From Alphaproteobacteria bacterium (lineage in GTDB: Bacteria > Pseudomonadota > Alphaproteobacteria > UBA7887): a DNA stretch of 64,000 nt. The stretch covers positions 1,360,981 to 1,424,980 of the forward strand of contig OZ241752.1 in the NCBI GenBank assembly GCA_965201155.1. The letters are read 5' to 3'. Each line of letters begins with the position of its first letter. Position 1 is the stretch's first letter. The translations under genes were made by a program, and so were the position numbers. Below the pieces are notes generated by a model that worked only from the letters and a program-made list of their open reading frames with translations, searched no databases and was not told the origin of the DNA. This document shows, one piece after another, positions 4,111-26,452 of the stretch.

Positions 4111-5493
4111 TTAGCTGGTGGCGAGCGGTGCGGCGAGAACCATGGGGTTGCCGTTGCGCTCGACGAGCAGCAGCAGCGACGGGTTGCCGGCATCAACCGC
4201 ATCTGCAATGGCGGCCCTGAGCGCTGCGGCATCGGTGACCGGGCGCCAGCCGGCCTCGCGAATGACATCGCCGGGCCGCATGGCGGCCTTGTCCGCCGGC
4301 CCGCCCGTCATCACCGCCACCACGGTGAGGCCGTTGCCGTCGGCGGCCGGCGCCACCTGCACGCCCAGGGTCATCGCCGCCCGCGGTTCGAGCGCCTGCG
4401 CCACCGCCGCCGGCTTGCTGTCCTGGGCCACTGCGACCTCGAACGCCATGGGCTTGCCGTCGCGGAATCCGGTGACGGCCACCGTCGTGCTGCCGGGGGT
4501 CGCCGAAACCATGCGGGCGAGATGGCGCGGGTCTTCCACTTCCTGCCCGTTCCAGCGCGTGATGACATCGCCGGTGCGAATTCCGGCTGCGGCGGCGGGG
4601 CTTTGCGGGTGCACGCGCACGACCAGCGCGCCCGCAGCCTCGTCGAGGCCCAGCGCCTCGTTCAGCGTCTCGTTCAGCGTCTGGATGTTGACTCCCAGCC
4701 ATCCGCGCACCGCCTGGCCGTGCTCGCGCAACTGCGCGATGATGGGTGTGGCCAGCGCCGCCGGAATGGCGAAGCCTATGCCGACACTGCCGCCATTGGG
4801 CGACACGATGGCGGTATTGACGCCGATTACCTTGCCGTCGAGATCGAATAGCGGGCCGCCCGAATTGCCGCGGTTGATCGGCGCGTCCGTCTGCAGGAAG
4901 TCGTCATACGGTCCGGCATTGATGTCGCGTCCGCGCCCGGAGATGATTCCGGCGGTGACGGTGCCGCCAAAGCCGAACGGATTGCCGATCGCCAGCGTCC
5001 AGTCGCCGACGCGCAGGGCATCGGAATCGCCCCATTCAAGCGCCGGCAGAGGGGCGCCGGCATCAACCTTGAGCAGTGCAAGGTCGGTTTTCGGGTCGGC
5101 GCCGATGAGCGCCGCGTCAAGGGCCTCGCCCGTTGCCAGCGTTACGGTAATGCTTTTCGCATCGGCGATGATGTGGCTGTTGGTTACGATGGCGCCGTCC
5201 GCGTCGATGAGGAAGCCCGAGCCGCTGGCCATGGCGCGCGGTGCGGCGCCGGGGCCGGACCTGCCGAAGCGCCGTTCGAAAAATCTTTCGAGCGGCGTGC
5301 GCGGCAGCTGGGCCGCGGCGCCCTCGCGTTCCACGGTGATCGCCACGACGCCGGGCGACAATGCCTCGACCAGATTGGCGAAGCTTTCGGCCGGGTGCGC
5401 CTGCGCGGCAGCCGCCGGCGCGATACCTGCCAACACGGCAACCATCAGGGCCGTCCGGCGCCCGGCGGCACCGGTGGTGTTTGGGTGAATCAT
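4111..5493 (-). CDS. periplasmic serine protease, DegP/HtrA (Do) family with two PDZ domains
   Basis: Trypsin-like triad context: GSGFLIDADGAIVTNSHI.., DLALLKV, GNSGGPLFDLDGKVIGVNTAI. A signal peptide follows M at 5493. Confidence 0.9.
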   Translation of the reverse strand: MIHPNTTGAAGRRTALMVAVLAGIAPAAAAQAHPAESFANLVEALSPGVVAITVEREGAAAQLPRTPLERFFERRFGRSGPGAAPRAMASGSGFLIDADGAIVTNSHIIADAKSITVTLATGEALDAALIGADPKTDLALLKVDAGAPLPALEWGDSDALRVGDWTLAIGNPFGFGGTVTAGIISGRGRDINAGPYDDFLQTDAPINRGNSGGPLFDLDGKVIGVNTAIVSPNGGSVGIGFAIPAALATPIIAQLREHGQAVRGWLGVNIQTLNETLNEALGLDEAAGALVVRVHPQSPAAAAGIRTGDVITRWNGQEVEDPRHLARMVSATPGSTTVAVTGFRDGKPMAFEVAVAQDSKPAAVAQALEPRAAMTLGVQVAPAADGNGLTVVAVMTGGPADKAAMRPGDVIREAGWRPVTDAAALRAAIADAVDAGNPSLLLLVERNGNPMVLAAPLATS

Positions 5494-20924: not shown

Positions 20925-22210
20925 AAGGGAGGCTCTCAAAATCGCCCATTTTTCTCATTTATGTGGTATAATCCGGGTTGTTGTCTCGGGAGGCGGATTT
21001 GATGGGCCTGCCGGGTTTTTTCGATCTTGAAGAACGGTTCGCAAAGCTTGACGGATTGGGCGATCCGTTGGCGAAGCTGTCCGGTTCTGTGAACTGGGAA
21101 GGGTTTCGCCCGGCGCTGGACGCGGCACTGTCGAAGCCGCGCAAGAGCAATGCCGGTCGCAGGGAATACGACCGGGTTCTCATGTTCCGGGTTCTGGTCT
21201 TGCAGCAAATGTACAACCTGAGCGACGACCAGACGGAGTTCCAGATCCGCGACCGCTATTCGTTCGCCCGGTTCCTGGGGCTGCATCCCGAGGATACGGT
21301 GCCCGATGCAAAGACCATCTGGCGGTTTCGGGAGAACCTGAAACTCGCGGAGGCGTTTGACAGCCTGTTTTCGGAACTGTCCTCGCAGATCGAGGGCCAG
21401 GGCTATGTGGCGCGCAGGGGACAGATCGTGGATGCGAGCTTTGTGAAGGCGCCGCGTCAACGCAACAGCCGCGACGAGAACGCACAGGTGAAGGCGGGGA
21501 AGGTTCCGTCCGAATGGTCGCAGAAGAAGCGCCGTCACAAGGACACCGACGCACGCTGGACGCGCAAGAGAAATGAAACCCATTACGGATACAAGAACCA
21601 CATCAGCGTGGACCGTGCGTATCGTCTTGTCCGTCGCTGGGAGGCGAGCGATGCGGCGTGTCACGACAGCAAGATGTTCGAACAGGTGCTTGATGAGACG
21701 AATACCAGTGGCGCCGTCTGGGCCGACAGTGCCTACAGCAGTCGCCACCATGAGGCGTTGCTGGCCGAACGGAGCTGGCGCAGCCACATTCACCGCAAGG
21801 GGCATCGCAACCGCCCCTTGCCTGTGCGCTCCCAGGAAGCCAACCGCAAGCGTTCGAAGGTGCGCGCGGTCGTCGAACATGTCTTTGCTCAACACGAAGC
21901 GATGGGCGGCAAGCGGGTCAGGACTATCGGCATGGTCCGGGCACGCTTCAAGATCGGCATGATGAACCTGGTGTACAACCTGCGTCGGCTTGCCTGGCTG
22001 CGGGCGAACCACCGGCCCCTCTGCTGCGACAGGGTTCAATAGAATGCCGAACACGGGGGGCCTATGTGCCCTGTGAACCGTTTCAGGCTCTCCAACCGCT
22101 GTCGGGAACCGTTTTCCTCACCTGATCCGTGACCCCACGGAGTGCTTCATCCCCACAAAACCGACAAATCAACCGAGGACAACAAAAACTAAATTACGAG
22201 AACCTCCCTT
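20925..22210 (+). mobile_element. IS5-family insertion sequence (~1.29 kb)
   Basis: Imperfect terminal inverted repeats: AAGGGAGGCTCTCAAAAT (20925-) versus the reverse complement of the right end, AAGGGAGGTTCTCGTAAT (-22210), about 15/18 matches. It is flanked by CAT on both sides (20922-24 and 22211-13) and encloses the transposase ORF. Confidence 0.65.
21002..22042 (+). CDS. IS5-family DDE transposase
   Basis: MGLPGFFDLEERFAKLDGLGDPLAKL..WEGFRP..RREYDRVLMFRVLVLQQMYNLSDDQTEFQIRDRYSF..DASF..HYGYK..ADSAY..VEHVF. Confidence 0.9.
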   Translation: MGLPGFFDLEERFAKLDGLGDPLAKLSGSVNWEGFRPALDAALSKPRKSNAGRREYDRVLMFRVLVLQQMYNLSDDQTEFQIRDRYSFARFLGLHPEDTVPDAKTIWRFRENLKLAEAFDSLFSELSSQIEGQGYVARRGQIVDASFVKAPRQRNSRDENAQVKAGKVPSEWSQKKRRHKDTDARWTRKRNETHYGYKNHISVDRAYRLVRRWEASDAACHDSKMFEQVLDETNTSGAVWADSAYSSRHHEALLAERSWRSHIHRKGHRNRPLPVRSQEANRKRSKVRAVVEHVFAQHEAMGGKRVRTIGMVRARFKIGMMNLVYNLRRLAWLRANHRPLCCDRVQ

Positions 22211-22520
22211 CATACAGATTTCTCCTGAAGACACTTTGTATTTGCCGGTAAATTCCGGGTGTGCGGACATTACTTCACCGCGACGCAATGCGCTAGTCAT
22301 AGGGAACAGAATCAGAAGCCCTGACAATGAAACATGGCATGGTCAACTGCTTGCGATTATGGTTTCTTGAATAAAGAAATGGTTCCTGAGTGACAGGAAA
22401 GAAGATTCATGGAAAAATGACATTACCGTCGCCGGGCCGCGCTTGCGTTGCTTCGTGGCGTTGCGGCGGAGGCCGAGGCAGCGATAATGGCGGCAGGGCA
22501 GCTTGGCAGGGGGGATCAAC

Positions 22521-23297
22521 ATGAGCGGGCAAAGAATTGTCGTCGTCACCGGCGGGGCAAGCGGGATCGGGCGCGCCTGTGCCCACCGGTTCGGGCACGC
22601 CGGTGATTCCGTCGTCATCGCCGACATCAACCGCGCGAACGGTGAGCGCGTCGCAGCGGAAATCGCCGAATCGGGCGGGACCGCGCGCTATGCAACCCTG
22701 GACGTTGCAGAGGCGAACTCGATACAGGCGCTGGCCGAAGCACTGGGGACAGTGGATATTCTGGTCAATTCAGCGGGGTTGCTGCAGAACGCCACCCGCA
22801 CCGCCACCATGGATCTTGCCGAGCATGACCGCATATGGGCGGTGAATTATCGCGGCACCTATTTGTGCTGTCAGGCGTTCGCGCCCGCCATGCAGGCCGC
22901 CGGTCGCGGCGCGATCGTTAATATCTCCTCCACTTCGGCGGCGCGCGCCTTCCCCCTGCACGCCTACGGGCCGGGCAAGGCGGCCATCGACCAGTTGACG
23001 GCGATCCTCGCCGCCGATCTGGGGCCGGACGGCGTGCGCGTAAATGCGGTGATGCCCGGCTATGTCCGCACCGAGCAGATGCAGGCGCGCATCGACGCCG
23101 GCTATCGCGATCCGTCAAAAATGGAAGAACAGAGCGCCTTCGGGCGCATGGTGGAGCCGGCGGAAATCGCCGATGGCGTGTTTTTCCTGTGCTCCGACGC
23201 CGCCCGCGCCATCACCGGCATCGTGCTGCCGATCGATACCGGCTGGCTCGCCCGCGTCACCTATGTGCAATATCCCGGCTGGCCCCCGGAGGAATGA
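22521..23297 (+). CDS. short-chain dehydrogenase/reductase (SDR)
   Basis: TGGASGIGRA cofactor motif, NSAG, and a Y..K active-site region (AYGPGKAA). Start is ATG 22521. Confidence 0.9.
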   Translation: MSGQRIVVVTGGASGIGRACAHRFGHAGDSVVIADINRANGERVAAEIAESGGTARYATLDVAEANSIQALAEALGTVDILVNSAGLLQNATRTATMDLAEHDRIWAVNYRGTYLCCQAFAPAMQAAGRGAIVNISSTSAARAFPLHAYGPGKAAIDQLTAILAADLGPDGVRVNAVMPGYVRTEQMQARIDAGYRDPSKMEEQSAFGRMVEPAEIADGVFFLCSDAARAITGIVLPIDTGWLARVTYVQYPGWPPEE

Positions 23298-23332
23298 GCA
23301 CCCCGCCACGCTGCGTAAGGCGCAGTCTCACG
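23088..23332 (+). repeat. direct repeat copy 1 (SDR 3' end + ~35 bp downstream)
   Basis: Aligns with 26215..26452, including exact runs of 46 nt (ttcctgtgctccgacgcc..gtgctgc) and 53 nt (atcgataccggctgg..ggctggcc). This copy holds a 15-nt segment (aaaaatggaagaaca) that is missing from copy 2. Confidence 0.85.
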
Positions 23333-23448
23333 CACTTCCCGACGAATTCGGTCATGTCGGCGCCTATGTCGCCCGGGCTGATCCGAAATATCGGGAAAGC
23401 CCGGTATTCGGCGTCGCGGGCATCGTCCTGCCAGCCAGTGAGGTGCGG
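23332..23448 (+). pseudogene. possible DUF3800-like N-terminal fragment
   Basis: The frame reads ALPDEFGHVGAYVARADPKYRESPVFGVAGIVLPASEVR, resembling the DUF3800 'yiDEsG...fvlaGvv' N-terminus. There is no start codon and no continuation. It begins exactly where repeat copy 1 ends. Confidence 0.3.
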
Positions 23449-23529
23449 TGGGATATCAGCGCGATTCGTTCCGGTCGAATTCCCGCTTCTCATAGATGGT
23501 CGCGATTTGCCTACCATCCCAGACGTAGC

Positions 23530-23754
23530 AATGCCCACGATGTAGGAAATACGCTCCAGCGTATCCTTGGGGAGCACGACGTTCGGATCCTTCTTCCATT
23601 TGAAGAAGGTCGATCGGGCCGCCATGCCGAGAAGGATCATCTGTTCCCCGGTCGAAAGGCTCCAGAGTTCCGCAATCCGAAAGAACGTGCGCAGCGCCGG
23701 GCCGGACAGGTCCTTGCGATCCACTGCCATCGCCGAGTGTGCTTGTGCAGCCAT
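23530..23754 (-). pseudogene. Xre/ParS/MbcA-type antitoxin, N-terminal HTH part only
   Basis: MAAQAHSAMAVDRKDLSGPALRTFFRIAELWSLSTGEQMILLGMAARSTFFKWKKDPNVVLPKDTLERISYIVGI matches the antitoxin Xre-like HTH domain. The expected DUF2384 C-domain and the downstream RES toxin are absent. The remainder of track ORF 23257..23787 is read-through into unrelated sequence. Confidence 0.55.
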
Positions 23755-24233
23755 GATGTGATCCACATATATTGTTATCTGCAACATAGTCTATCAATGG
23801 ATCAGCCACAAGAACTGTCGGATTGTTGCCGGTAGCACGCGGTACCCGCTGTGACGCGTGGCTTCAGGGCCCGATGCAAAACGGCGGAATTCCTTGCCGC
23901 GGGATCGGTCGGCCAGTACACTGGAACCCTTATGGAGGATGTGCGCGTATCCGAAGCTCGTCGACACAAGCGACGAACATGGTGCTCGCCCGCGCCACTC
24001 ACCGCATGATCAACAAGAAAGCAGGAAAGGCCGCACGACAAAACTCGGTGCCGAGGTGATGGCCGTGGCGCACCGCTTATGCAGAGGCGGCGCACGCGGC
24101 CGTGCTTCGCGGACACAGGCGCGGCGTCGTACGATTGTCCGCACCGCGACGGGTTCGATAAGACAAGGCGAACCGCGGTGGCTGCGAGGGGAACGAGCAG
24201 GCCTGCTTCGCCCGGCGGCGCTTTGATTGTCGG

Positions 24234-25163
24234 ATGATTACGTACCTGTCCGGCGACCTGTTCCAATCGCCCGCAAAAGTCCTGGTCAACACGGTCAATA
24301 CCGTCGGCGTGATGGGCAAGGGCATCGCGCTCGAATTCAAGCGCATCTACCCCGAGATGTTCAAGGCGTACCGCAACCACTGCGAGAGGGGTGACCTCAG
24401 GATCGGCCATCTGTTCCTCTACAAGACGCCGCACAAGTGGATACTGAACTTCCCGACCAAGAAGCACTGGCGCAGCCCGTCGCGGGAGGAGTACATTGAG
24501 GCAGGTCTCAAGAAGTTGCGGGCCAGTTGTTCCGAGATGGGGATGACGTCGATTGCGTTCCCGGAACTTGGGTGCGGAAACGGCGAACTCGATTTCGAGA
24601 CGCAGGTGAAGCCGCTCATGGAGCGGTATCTGGGAACCCTGTCCGTGCCGATATTCATCTATCTGACCGGCGCAAAGACGGATCCTCCGGAACACAGGAA
24701 CGTGCGCAGCATCAGGCAGTGGCTGCGATCCGAGCCGTCAGCGCTGCCGTTCGACGAGATCTGGCCGGATGTTGTTAATACTCTGCGTCAGCGGTGCGAC
24801 TTCGCGACGCTGTCCAAAGGCAATCCTTTCACGGCCACTGTGACGGCCGATCCTCCAACCATCACGATTACATCTGGCCGCGGGACCACGCGGATACTCA
24901 CCGCTGATCTGCGGCGGTTCTGGCAGCAGTTGCGCGACTTCGGCCTGACGCACGGAAGTATCGCACCCGACCACCGGTTCACCTCCTATCTACTGCCGGT
25001 ATTCGCCGAACTGCCGTATGTGAAACCCGTCAAGTTGTCAGAGTCGTCGAGCAGGCTGCGGAAAAACCCCGCGGCAGGGCTCCTGGTGGTCCCGCCTCCG
25101 ATGCCGGAAGTGCCAGCGACGATGGATCTGTTCGCAAGGCTGGACGATGGCGCAGAAATCTGA
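24234..25163 (+). CDS. DarG-type macrodomain protein (ADP-ribosyl glycohydrolase antitoxin-like) with ~150-aa C-terminal domain
   Basis: MITYLSGDLFQSPAKVLVNTVNTVGVMGKGIALEFKRIYPEMFKAYRNHCERG..ILNFPTKKHWRSPS..IAFPELGCGNGELDF is near-collinear with DarG macrodomains such as M. tuberculosis Rv0060, from memory. Confidence 0.85.
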   Translation: MITYLSGDLFQSPAKVLVNTVNTVGVMGKGIALEFKRIYPEMFKAYRNHCERGDLRIGHLFLYKTPHKWILNFPTKKHWRSPSREEYIEAGLKKLRASCSEMGMTSIAFPELGCGNGELDFETQVKPLMERYLGTLSVPIFIYLTGAKTDPPEHRNVRSIRQWLRSEPSALPFDEIWPDVVNTLRQRCDFATLSKGNPFTATVTADPPTITITSGRGTTRILTADLRRFWQQLRDFGLTHGSIAPDHRFTSYLLPVFAELPYVKPVKLSESSSRLRKNPAAGLLVVPPPMPEVPATMDLFARLDDGAEI

Positions 25164-26151
25164 TGCAGGTGAGATCCTCGAATACATGCAGCAGTTGCCG
25201 TCCCGCCTGAAGCTTGATCGCAATCGGCGCTTCTGGTCGCGTTGGCTGTTCCGTTCGGATCACGTCGAGAACGCCGCGGAAATCTTGAACAGCGGCGTTC
25301 TGCTGTCGCGGGCAGCGGCCGAGCGCAAAAAATTGATCCGGGTGGACAGTGGAAGCCCCCAGTATGTGAACCAACTATCCGCTTCGCACGGGAACCTGGT
25401 CCGGCTCTACTTCCGCCCTCGAACGCCCACGCAATACGCAAACGAAGGGATTCGGCCCCGAGACCGGATCGAATAAGGGGCGCACATGCCGGTGCCGGTG
25501 TATCTGCTGTTCGCGGCAAGCCTGCTGGGCGAGGAGGGGGTGTCCTTCACCAAGGGCCGACTGGCTGATGGAACGGAGGTCGGCGACACGGCCGAGTTCC
25601 TCAGATCCATCGCCTTTGGCGACGTGTATCACGACAGCGGTGTGGGCCGTCTCGGCGAGTCCTCCGGACGGTCGGATATTCTGAATGCGCGGCACTCGGA
25701 GGTCGTGGTGGAGAACGAACTCGCGCTCGATACATTGAGGCACATTGTCTGCCGGTCGGCGGCGGAACGGGAAACCCTGTTGAACCTGCTTTCTCCCCAG
25801 GCAAAGAACCGGTGGCCGCGGAGGATCCATGTCGACGAAGGGCATCGAAGGATGTTCGAGAAGCGCGGCACGTTCGTGCAGACGGCGGATCTGTCGAGCG
25901 ACAAGTCCCGGTTCCGGTTCTACCCGGACATTGAGGCAAGCATGCAGGGACCGTTCGACTTGGCCATCGAGTGGTCGTCTGGAGATCGTACTGCGGGTGC
26001 CCGGCAGGAGGACTTCATGGTGTCGAGCCGCCCGGTCACCTATCGGCTAAGACAGGCCGCGTCGAGATACAAGGTTCGTATAACGCTGGACGACAATTTG
26101 GCCTATCTTGGCACCTTCGACGAACAGTACAAATCCGATCTGCTGTTCTAG
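25147..26151 (+). pseudogene. DarT-like (DUF4433-type) ADP-ribosyltransferase, interrupted by one in-frame TAA (track ORFs 25147..25476 and 25486..26151 share a frame)
   Basis: N-piece: WLFRSDHVENAAEILNSGVLLSR and LVRLYFRPRTPTQY (compare DarT HITHIDNL and YVPFYFCPRSPMLY). C-piece: VSFTKGRLAD and ARHSEVVVENELAL (compare FTDRHA and QAEFLV; candidate catalytic Glu codon at 25699-25701). The start overlaps the macro gene by 17 nt. Confidence 0.65.
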
Positions 26152-26214
26152 GATTTTTCCGAAATTCAGCCCGTGTGATGGTCCTTGATCATGACCTCGC
26201 CCGCGTTGCCGCCG

Positions 26215-26409
26215 CGTATCGACGCCGGCTGTCGTGACCCGTCGAGCGCATTCGGGTGCATGGTGGAGCCCGCGGGAATCGCCGACGGCGTGCATTTCCT
26301 GTGCTCCGACGCCGCCCGCGCCATCACCGGCATCGTGCTGCTCATCGATACCGGCTGGCTCGCCCGCGTCACCTATGTGCAATATCCCGGCTGGCCGCCG
26401 GAGGACTGA
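26215..26409 (+). pseudogene. 3' remnant of an SDR gene
   Basis: Encodes RIDAGCRDPSSAFGCMVEPAGIADGVHFLCSDAARAITGIVLLIDTGWLARVTYVQYPGWPPED, paralogous to the C-terminus of the intact SDR at 22521..23297. No 5' part is present. Confidence 0.8.
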
Positions 26410-26452
26410 GCGGGCTGCCGCCGCGTATCGGCGCTATGCAAGGCGCAGGCGC
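26215..26452 (+). repeat. direct repeat copy 2 (degenerate SDR 3' end + convergent hydratase 3' end)
   Basis: See copy 1. Identity is about 96% over the last ~130 nt and lower (~80%, with a 15-nt deletion) over the first ~80 nt, by eye. Confidence 0.85.

Follow-up and report, generated by a model that had tools for sequence, protein, structure and literature searches.

A putative DarTG2-related toxin-antitoxin cassette with the macrodomain gene in first position and an interrupted toxin frame

Do the two overlapping genes at 24234..26151 form a toxin-antitoxin system of the DarTG kind, how does it relate to the described subtypes, and is this copy still able to work? Enzymatic ADP-ribosylation of DNA bases has its model in the DarT enzymes, which take part in phage defence and, in M. 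tuberculosis, in growth control; DarT2 has lately also found use in genome editing. In the window, by which we mean the whole stretch of 64,000 nucleotides that was analysed, an intact ORF of 309 aa (gene 1, 24234..25163, plus strand) encodes a putative antitoxin composed of a macrodomain and a family-specific C-terminal domain. It is followed on the same strand by a DarT-like toxin gene of 334 codons (gene 2, 25147..26151), whose ATG at 25147 lies 17 nt inside gene 1. The sequence bears out both reading frames as they had been called before, and the overlap (25147..25163) would be consistent with translational coupling.

The first-pass annotation, made from the letters alone, took the first gene for a DarG-like macrodomain gene and the second for a DarT-like transferase gene, each with additional domains, and suggested that the pair was a variant or undescribed module. 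Profile, structure and comparative tests all uphold the main reading, and the pair is indeed a variant. "Undescribed" holds in a narrower sense: the searchable literature on DarTG subtypes, DUF4433 and the DarG C-terminal domain yielded NADAR-, macrodomain- and ARH-linked DarTG subtypes only and no description of the macro-then-DarT-Ig architecture, but public databases already label the proteins of this family as DarT-family and macro-domain proteins. Furthermore, the annotation merely hinted at the state of the toxin by speaking of a stop-repaired product; in the window, the toxin gene is a pseudogene. We consider it likely that the locus represents a two-gene toxin-antitoxin or defence cassette that was acquired horizontally, that belongs to a distinct DarTG2-related subtype and whose toxin was inactivated recently.

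Domains and catalytic residues of the two proteins

Residues 1-149 of gene 1 (24234..24680, plus strand) are a DarG-like macrodomain, in agreement with the original assignment. The protein matches the Pfam Macro profile with an E-value of 3.5e-19 and the PADLOC DarG profile with an E-value of 1.5e-63, the latter over residues 1-149 only. In Foldseek, the macrodomain superimposes on that of Taq DarG (5M3E; E 2.6e-16, TM 0.90, 48% identity) and on that of Mtb DarG (5M3I; 52% identity), with a TM of 0.88-0.90 across the two structures. In Taq DarG, K80 is the catalytic lysine and W83 is the base-stacking tryptophan (PMC9967889). A phmmer alignment places the TKKHW motif of gene 1 opposite these residues, and the corresponding catalytic Lys76 (codon 24459-24461) and Trp79, three residues on, are invariant in the family. 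The homologues of gene 1 are 302-313 aa long and up to 81% identical to it, and all invariant columns of a 63-sequence alignment are kept in the window copy. Its score against the NCBIfam antitoxin_DarG model is 203.7 bits, which is below the cut-off of 250 and covers only model positions 1-154.

The remaining ~150 aa, which the first-pass annotation could not place, form a real domain that appears to be confined to this family. AlphaFold2 (AF2) folds residues ~157-288 (24702..25097, plus strand) confidently as an alpha/beta domain with a pLDDT of mostly 81-95. This domain has no match in the PDB (by sequence search), Pfam or PHROG, and a HMMER search of 1.84 billion representative proteins returned only 92 matches, nearly all of which are members of the gene 1 family or their fragments. 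The matches of ~175 aa begin at the conserved internal Met129 and are hence fragments or miscalled ORFs. A match of 401 aa is probably a chimaera with an N6-methylase, and another, of 466 aa, is genuinely fused to a UDG-superfamily domain. We also considered a diverged form of the canonical DarG C-terminal domain and found no support for it at the profile level, as hhalign gave a probability of 0.6% against nine canonical DarG C-terminal domains.

Gene 2 gives significant DarT matches by both profile and fold. Its stop-repaired translation scores 60 bits (3.4e-16) against Pfam DarT (DUF4433, PF14487) over residues 38-226, where the gathering cut-off is 22.5 bits. All of its 602 homologues (about 600 protein clusters) carry a precomputed PF14487 hit; those of full coverage are 330-337 aa long, with a best identity of 74%. 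The structural model is an AF2 prediction of the intact homologue P0001, which is 74% identical to gene 2 (pLDDT 92). On the basis of this model, Foldseek and hhalign, the DarT-fold ADP-ribosyltransferase (ART) domain spans residues ~30-228 (25234..25830, plus strand). By fold, it matches the Thermus DarT structures 7OMY (E 1.8e-9, TM 0.73 on the target) and 7OMV (E ~1e-9), with further matches to Mtb DarT 7YK3 and the T. africanus DarTG protein 7OMU; the match to E. coli C7 DarT1 (8BAQ) has an E-value of 5.9e-6. The family ART is nevertheless divergent. It is only ~14% identical to the solved DarTs, and gene 2 scores 17.8 bits against the NCBIfam equivalog toxin_DarT (NF048013), far under the cut-off of 150.

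Alignment of the family ART with canonical DarT2 and Thermus sequences (hhalign probability 96%) pairs R36/H39/N42, Y88, T95 and E185 with Thermus H13/H16/N19, Y71, M78 and E160, respectively. The catalytic Glu185 (GAG, 25699-25701) is invariant in a 20-sequence alignment and conserved in at least 90% of a 68-sequence alignment, whereas the NAD-stacking Tyr88 is invariant in both; the window copy has both residues. The YFxPRxPxxY motif is also kept, and the Thermus M78 position is occupied by an invariant threonine, T95. R82 aligns within one position of Thermus R50/R51, and the counterpart of Thermus H119 is ambiguous, as it could fall either in the FTKGR motif or in a variable loop. In the Thermus enzyme, R51 and H119 handle the thymine; neither has an unambiguously placed counterpart in the family ART.

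The four DarT motifs proposed at the outset (FRSDH..N, LYFRPRTPTQY, FTKGR and ARHSEVVV) are all present and are invariant or nearly so in 68 homologues. One detail of that proposal had to be given up. The arginine of FRSDH had been regarded as a departure from the canonical NAD-pocket motif, but it occupies the same position in ordinary plasmid DarT2, where Burkholderia, Moraxella, Zymomonas and Sulfitobacter have WRIVH. T. africanus DarT has a tyrosine at this position.

Besides an extra N-terminal helix, the toxin has a C-terminal extension, which had been noticed earlier and which AF2 now resolves into a confident fold. In the P0001 model, residues ~240-325 (25864..26121, plus strand) make up an eight-stranded Ig/FN3-like beta-sandwich with a pLDDT of mostly 90-96. 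Foldseek finds weak matches of this domain to FN3 domains (3MTR, 6.7e-4; 2HAZ) and to the RsgI4 sensor domain 7CG8, and it has no Pfam or PHROG match.

The interrupted toxin frame and its islet

Codon 110 of gene 2 is an in-frame TAA (25474..25476, plus strand), which splits the gene into ORFs of 109 and 221 aa. Each half exceeds the 22.5-bit Pfam DarT cut-off on its own (28.3 and 24.9 bits). Most homologues have a tyrosine at this site (consensus IxYGAHMPVP), and a single TAY-to-TAA change is thus sufficient to explain the stop. Elsewhere, the gene retains each of the 37 residues that are invariant in the family, and no other conserved residue is damaged. Since the TAA replaces a near-invariant Tyr110, we regard the toxin as a recent pseudogene. 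The mutation would separate the NAD-binding half of the enzyme from the half that carries the catalytic glutamate, and, judged from its sequence, the window copy is probably non-functional as a toxin. The cassette in the window is hence most likely an orphan antitoxin next to a dead toxin.

Could the cassette nevertheless be intact, with the TAA being a sequencing or assembly error or being read through, so that a working toxin-antitoxin system is present? The stop is the sole lesion in a frame that keeps every invariant residue, and it is one base away from the consensus codon. However, it is a substitution rather than a homopolymer indel and therefore not a typical assembly error, and TAA is, of the three stop codons, generally the one that bacteria read through least. 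Programmed recoding was rejected, since neither a stop nor a recoding signal is present at this position in any homologue. Furthermore, independent inactivation of the toxin is common in the family. Taken together, an intact cassette appears improbable.

It is more improbable still that the toxin is translated as two pieces, the first ending after codon 109 and the second restarting at ATG 25486 (Met114), which reassemble into an active or attenuated enzyme. The TAA and the following GGG do create a Shine-Dalgarno-like AAGGGG five nucleotides upstream of this ATG, the break coincides with residues 100-109, where the first half of the model is least confident (pLDDT 76), and the source assembly calls the 221-aa ORF as a gene (P0041). 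Such fragments, however, would be missing residues 110-113 and with them A112 and H113, which are nearly invariant in the AHMPVP motif; the invariance of Met114 in the family has other reasons, and none of the 80 loci examined has a homologue split at this point. The preferred reading remains a toxin gene killed by a recent nonsense mutation.

The module lies, as previously suggested, in a small islet next to toxin-antitoxin debris. It is bracketed by a ~220-nt direct repeat, the copies of which are 84-93% identical. The left copy (23080..23299) is the 3' end of an intact SDR gene at 22503-23297 (Pfam adh_short_C2, 2.5e-56), and the right copy (26207..26411), at the right edge of the islet, is an orphan SDR 3'-end fragment that matches the end of the adh_short_C2 profile. 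The islet is ~2.9 kb long and has a GC content of ~0.60 compared to 0.65-0.70 outside. Inside it, on the minus strand, is the remnant of an Xre-like-HTH (ParS/MbcA-type) antitoxin gene (23257..23787). Its Xre-like-HTH match (4.1e-12) is limited to residues 23-85, and all frames were searched without finding a DUF2384 domain, any other recognisable C-terminal domain or a partner (RES) toxin. A scan of the islet for promoters and terminators gave nothing above chance. For the host genome, the practical message is modest, that of a decayed mobile cassette with a dead toxin, the surviving macrodomain gene of which may still protect against DarT-type toxins.

Gene order, inheritance and decay in the family

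Relatives of the pair occur in 144 of 185,579 species genomes, scattered across many phyla, and we examined 80 genome loci more closely. The macrodomain gene is directly upstream of the DarT gene on the same strand in 79 of the 80, that is, in every one of the 79 two-gene loci. The co-inheritance of the two genes and the conservation of their order, both of which had been named as points to check, are therefore well documented. The order also differs from that of described DarTG, as had been claimed, since the canonical plasmid DarTG2 loci examined place darT first. The overlap between the genes is 4 nt in 42 of the 79 loci, 17 nt in 11 and 11 nt in 5 (58 of 79 together); the 17-nt form seen in the window recurs in L001-L008 and other loci. 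Nucleotide homology to the relatives is limited to 24230-26149, and the flanking genes vary among the genomes (other toxin-antitoxin pairs, integrases, TIR, AAA_15/21 ATPases, helicases and T4SS genes). The adjacent, co-oriented and coupled genes are thus inherited together as a mobile cassette, which is a generic feature of type II/IV toxin-antitoxin operons.

Decay in this family is one-sided. In at least 6 of the 80 loci (L009, L021, L026, L027, L028 and L077), a disrupted toxin accompanies a macrodomain gene that is fully intact, although several of these come from metagenome-assembled genomes, in which frameshifts may be assembly errors. In the Rhizobium plasmid locus L088, an IS3 element is found in place of the toxin. 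The reverse, a broken macrodomain gene next to an intact toxin, was found in none of the 80. The loss of the toxin beside an intact macrodomain gene, and never the other way around, fits the toxin and antitoxin roles assigned to the two proteins.

The same data bear on whether the pair is a selfish or defensive element at all, rather than a housekeeping system of reversible ADP-ribosylation signalling, for example one that controls growth, which is what has been proposed for DarTG of M. tuberculosis. Some copies do lie amid plain housekeeping and metabolic genes without mobile or defence neighbours, and Mtb DarTG is reported to regulate growth (PMC12170906). However, the distribution of the family is patchy, its homology is confined to the cassette, toxin decay is frequent, and the islet around the window copy is low in GC and has a duplicated target end. 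These observations point to a mobile and dispensable element, and we give a housekeeping function very little credence. A phage origin was rejected as well: among 2.9 million viral contigs in IMG/VR there is only one related locus, and the toxin and both C-terminal domains are without a PHROG match. Given this single viral locus and the housekeeping surroundings of some copies, the defence role of the cassette is only putative.

Relation to known DarTG systems and a predicted mechanism

DarTG2, examples of which are the systems of Thermus aquaticus, M. tuberculosis (Rv0059/Rv0060) and EPEC, is the closest known relative. Both it and the present family are two-gene operons that pair a DarT-fold PF14487 ART with a TARG1/DarG-type macrodomain protein bearing a further C-terminal domain. 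They share the catalytic lysine and the stacking tryptophan of the macrodomain as well as the NAD-stacking tyrosine, the YFxPRxPxxY motif and the catalytic glutamate of the ART. The differences concern the gene order, the toxin (~334 aa with an N-terminal helix and the Ig/FN3-like domain, whereas canonical DarT has ~213 aa) and the antitoxin (~309 aa, the C-terminal domain of which has no profile similarity to that of DarG). In addition, both proteins fall under the NCBI equivalog cut-offs, and the ART is as distant from the solved DarTs as described above.

The other systems are further removed. DarTG1 of E. coli C7 likewise has a DarT fold within a toxin-antitoxin or defence operon for reversible base ADP-ribosylation, but its antitoxin is a NADAR protein, whereas gene 1 has a macrodomain and no NADAR hit, and the fold match to DarT1 is weaker than that to DarT2. 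DarHTG/DarG3 (Liu-DS3; NAR 2026, PMC13069673), which comprises a UvrD-like helicase as well as an antitoxin of the ARH type, is comparable as a non-canonical DarTG variant, likewise recognised only recently and produced by domain shuffling around a DarT toxin. The present family, however, keeps the DarG-type macrodomain, and neither a UvrD-like helicase nor an ARH-type antitoxin is found in the window islet or the sampled homologous loci. The Thermosipho africanus DarT-DarG fusion (PDB 7OMU) matches both the macrodomain and the ART of the family by fold and is the only PDB sequence match of the family ART profile (E 0.059). In contrast to the cassette, it joins both parts in one polypeptide, DarT being N-terminal and the macrodomain C-terminal, and has no Ig-like domain. 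The cassette family is a widespread and apparently undescribed relative of DarTG.

Its substrate, toxicity, mode of neutralisation and defence role can be predicted by extrapolation from DarTG2. In intact members, gene 1 would be translated first and gene 2 would be translationally coupled to it. With NAD+ as the donor, the DarT-fold enzyme would attach ADP-ribose to a base of single-stranded DNA, thymine being the most likely one, and this would stop the cell, or a phage that infects it, from replicating. The macrodomain of gene 1 would remove the adduct. Canonical DarG works in two ways, with a macrodomain that takes the adduct off again and a C-terminal domain that sequesters DarT (PMC7003065). 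The C-terminal domain of gene 1 may similarly bind the toxin and hold it inactive; as the two domains share no profile similarity, toxin sequestration is here an analogy. The Ig/FN3-like domain probably serves in regulation, oligomerisation or the recognition of a partner and trigger.

A rival reading concerns the substrate alone. The pair could be a toxin-antitoxin system, with the rest of the mechanism unchanged, in which the transferase targets another base, RNA (e.g. uracil) or a protein. The ART is very divergent (~14% identity), and, with a threonine in place of Thermus M78 and ambiguous counterparts of R51 and H119, its base or nucleic-acid specificity could differ. Base specificity already varies between DarT1, which modifies guanine, and DarT2 (PMC11543638), and TARG1- and DarG-type macrodomains also take ADP-ribose off uracil in RNA (PMC13036486). 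Against this stands a macrodomain that is 48-52% identical to the thymine-ADP-ribose hydrolase DarG and keeps the equivalents of K80 and W83, a fold that is nearer to DarT2 (E ~1e-9) than to DarT1 (E ~6e-6), and one variant of the cassette that is tied to a DNA glycosylase of the UDG superfamily. We therefore consider a different substrate unlikely and retain thymine in single-stranded DNA as the predicted target.

Across many phyla, the family combines a near-canonical DarG macrodomain with a divergent DarT, a new antitoxin C-terminal domain and an Ig-like domain on the toxin. A near-canonical macrodomain in the company of three unusual features makes it a natural test of which features of DarTG are essential, and a transferase that prefers other sequences or bases may be found in the family. 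A bolder proposal can be put forward tentatively, and we hold it to be possible, if rather doubtful: the cassette would be an uncharacterised third macrodomain-linked DarTG lineage, the divergent active site of which confers a new base or nucleic-acid specificity, and the Ig/FN3-like and antitoxin C-terminal domains would together form a new sensing or neutralisation mechanism, in which, for instance, recognition of a phage protein releases the toxin.

Two further observations concern the added domains. In the variant mentioned above, the UDG-superfamily glycosylase is fused to the antitoxin, and a TIR domain is fused to DarT. In a mirror-tree comparison, the divergence of the gene 1 C-terminal domain tracks that of the ART domain (partial r 0.39) more closely than that of the Ig-like domain (0.11), a weak signal in favour of toxin binding by the gene 1 C-terminal domain.

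Architecture and folds of the two proteins

A DarTG2-like cassette that occurs in many phyla is present at this locus as a decayed copy, in which the toxin is dead and the antitoxin intact. The first-pass annotation had read it as a variant toxin-antitoxin (TA) or defence module of a DarG-like and a DarT-like protein, and this reading is supported overall. The observation itself is confirmed. The two overlapping plus-strand ORFs are where it had placed them: gene 1, the putative antitoxin gene (24234-25163, 309 aa), and gene 2, the toxin gene (25147-26151), whose ATG at 25147 sits 17 nt within gene 1.

Gene 1 is matched by Pfam Macro (3.5e-19) and by the 329-position PADLOC DarG model (1.5e-63), the latter restricted to residues 1-149. 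NCBIfam antitoxin_DarG likewise covers the N-terminal part only, at 203.7 bits against a cut-off of 250. In the AlphaFold2 model (pLDDT 80), the macrodomain (residues 1-146) superposes on those of T. aquaticus and M. tuberculosis DarG with TM 0.88-0.90, rmsd 1.5-1.7 Å and 48-52% identity. A phmmer alignment with Taq DarG places T75-K76-K77-H78-W79 opposite T79-K80-K81-H82-W83. In this Taq DarG motif, the lysine K80 is catalytic and W83 stacks against thymine (PMC9967889). The residues matching these two are invariant across the family in a 63-member alignment, all of whose invariant residues are kept in gene 1.

Residues ~157-288 of gene 1 are modelled as a separate alpha/beta domain. It has no match in PDB, Pfam or PHROG, no profile similarity to nine canonical DarG C-terminal domains (hhalign probability 0.6%) and just 92 matches among 1.84 billion representative proteins. 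These comprise ~305-aa macro proteins of the family, a few fusions, and ~175-aa ORFs that start at a conserved internal Met129 and are therefore fragments.

Gene 2 was analyzed as a conceptual translation in which an in-frame stop is replaced. Pfam DarT matches this repaired protein with 60 bits (3.4e-16) over residues 38-226, and PADLOC DarT with 4.5e-6, whereas the NCBI DarT equivalog gives 17.8 bits against a cut-off of 150. A homologue search returned 602 clusters with a best identity of 74%, and nearly all homologues covering the full query are 330-337 aa long. The AlphaFold2 model of P0001, an intact homologue 74% identical to the repaired protein (pLDDT 92, pTM 0.90), resembles Thermus DarT 7OMY/7OMV over residues ~30-228 (E ~1e-9, TM 0.73 on the target, 14% identity). 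M. tuberculosis DarT 7YK3 and the T. africanus DarTG fusion 7OMU match the same region, as does, more weakly, E. coli C7 DarT1 8BAQ. Residues ~240-325 form an eight-stranded beta-sandwich in the model that weakly resembles FN3/Ig domains and the sensor domain of RsgI4 (E ~1e-3); this Ig-like domain has no family match in Pfam or PHROG. Both it and the antitoxin C-terminal domain are specific to this family.

Active site residues of the ADP-ribosyltransferase (ART) domain were mapped by hhalign of the family profile against canonical DarT2 plus the Thermus sequence (probability 96%). F-R36-S-D-H39-V-E-N42 pairs with Thermus Y-H13-I-T-H16-I-D-N19, Y88-F-R-P-R-T-P-T95-Q-Y with Y71-F-C-P-R-S-P-M78-L-Y, and H-S-E185-V with Q-A-E160-F. 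The NAD-stacking Tyr (Y88/Y71) and the catalytic Glu (E185/E160) are therefore conserved. The position of Thermus M78 is an invariant Thr in the family; R82 lies at most one position from Thermus R50/R51, and the counterpart of H119 is ambiguous. The Arg of the FRSDH motif, previously singled out as unusual, is not so, as ordinary plasmid DarT2 proteins also have Arg there (WRIVH).

The interrupted toxin gene and its islet

Gene 2 is a single frame from its ATG, interrupted by a plus-strand TAA at codon 110 (25474-25476). The stop splits it into two listed ORFs, one of 109 aa and one of 221 aa restarting at ATG 25486, and each half alone exceeds the Pfam DarT gathering score. The stop position is a Tyr in most homologues of the 20- and 68-member alignments (consensus IxYGAHMPVP), so that a single TAY-to-TAA change explains it, and every family-invariant residue is kept in the window copy. 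Such a one-step change in a gene with all invariant residues in place argues that the toxin gene was inactivated recently. The stop is hence best read as a recent nonsense mutation, a sequence error being less likely, and the window copy probably has no function as a toxin. At 25470-25488, the TAA and the following GGG create a Shine-Dalgarno-like AAGGGG five nucleotides before ATG 25486, the codon of the invariant Met114. Judging by sequence, this arrangement could permit reinitiation and yield the 221-aa C-terminal fragment.

The cassette lies in an islet of ~2.9 kb with a GC content of ~0.60, versus 0.65-0.70 outside, bracketed by a direct repeat. The left copy (23080-23299) is the last ~220 nt of an intact SDR gene (22503-23297), and the right copy (26207-26411) is 84-93% identical to the 3' end of that gene. 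Besides the cassette, the islet contains a minus-strand ORF (23257-23787) with an Xre-like-HTH antitoxin domain of the ParS/MbcA type at residues 23-85 only. With no DUF2384-like C terminus in any frame and no RES-type toxin partner, this ORF is the remnant of a second TA module. There is no integrase within the islet, which resembles a scar left when an element integrated at the SDR gene's 3' end. Just ahead of the SDR gene, some 1.2 kb upstream of the islet, is an IS5/IS4-type DDE transposase gene (20978-22042, plus strand; Pfam DUF772 and DDE_Tnp_1).

Decay of toxin and antitoxin genes

Screening a single genome per species gave 144 related loci; 80 of them, mostly from MAGs, were retained. 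In six of these 80 genomes (L009, L021, L026, L027, L028 and L077), stops or frameshifts interrupt the DarT gene beside a fully intact macro gene. The DarT gene of L061 has a late stop, and both genes are decayed in L055 and L059. A broken macrodomain beside an intact toxin was found in none of the 80 loci. This asymmetry matches the prediction for a toxin-antitoxin pair, although part of it could stem from MAG assembly errors. Rhizobium binae plasmid p3 (L088, 3001-5186) carries a family-type gene for a macro protein with a C-terminal domain, 42% identical to gene 1 including that domain, and an IS3 transposase directly after it, at the place expected for the toxin. This gene is an orphan antitoxin, and the window resembles it in having an intact antitoxin gene and no intact toxin gene.

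Neutralization of DarT by canonical DarG is twofold: the macrodomain takes the adduct off, and the C-terminal domain sequesters the toxin (PMC7003065). A crude mirror-tree comparison found the antitoxin C-terminal domain of the family to diverge more in step with the ART (partial r 0.39) than with the Ig-like domain (0.11). These correlations are compatible with, and hint weakly at, a role analogous to that of the DarG C-terminal domain.

Distribution and relation to known DarTG systems

The loci come from Alpha- and Gammaproteobacteria, Chloroflexota, Acidobacteriota, Planctomycetota, Latescibacterota, Myxococcota, Nitrospirota, Bacteroidota, Verrucomicrobiota and Bacillota (Trichococcus). 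The macro gene is immediately upstream of the DarT gene on the same strand in 79 of 80. The stop/start overlap is 4 nt at 42 loci, 17 nt at 11 loci and 11 nt at 5 loci. The single exception, the alphaproteobacterial MAG L059, is a deletion remnant: at 5000-5340 the first six codons of its macro gene are joined to DarT codon ~14, and its DarT gene ends abruptly past residue ~111, a few nucleotides from the window's stop position. The window and its relatives share nucleotide homology over 24230-26149 only, exactly the two genes. The neighbours vary by genome and include TIR and AAA/VWA proteins, T4SS genes, integrases, RelB/YafQ, Phd and HicB modules, AAA_15/21 ATPases and a helicase, with plain metabolic genes instead at some loci.

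Three subtypes are known from the searchable literature. DarTG1 combines a NADAR antitoxin with a guanine target (PMC11543638), DarTG2 a macrodomain antitoxin with a thymine target, and DarHTG/DarG3 a helicase with an ARH-type antitoxin (PMC13069673). In the canonical DarTG2 plasmid loci compared (Burkholderia, Bacillus, Moraxella, Zymomonas, Sulfitobacter, Synechocystis and Citrobacter), darT or its remnant precedes darG; an intact darT encodes ~213 aa and darG 341-366 aa. In contrast, the family has the reversed order, its antitoxin lacks the DarG C-terminal domain by profile comparison, and both proteins fall below the NCBI equivalog cut-offs. The family would nevertheless work like DarTG2, a function that we infer together with its substrate, toxicity and role in defence. 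Public annotation already names its proteins DarT-family or macro-domain. No macro-first cassette with a long DarT is described in the searchable literature (LeRoux et al. 2022 being outside its scope), and this DarTG2-like cassette is apparently uncharacterised to date. For specialists in DarT, the family would be worth studying.

Several variant architectures were also seen. In a Dehalococcoidia MAG (L040, 4422-6002), a 180-aa macrodomain-only antitoxin without the C-terminal domain stands beside an intact 343-aa toxin. Agrobacterium tumefaciens pAt1D1609b (L097, 161-2976) encodes a 439-aa DUF4433 protein followed by a 491-aa macro protein, another uncharacterised architecture that is darT-first with both genes enlarged. 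At a Logan locus (L100, SRR26389763, 4001-7056), which retains the macro-first order, the second gene encodes a 481-aa TIR_2-DarT fusion, and the 466-aa antitoxin joins the macrodomain and the family C-terminal domain to a UDG-superfamily DNA glycosylase, a fusion that supports a link to DNA bases.
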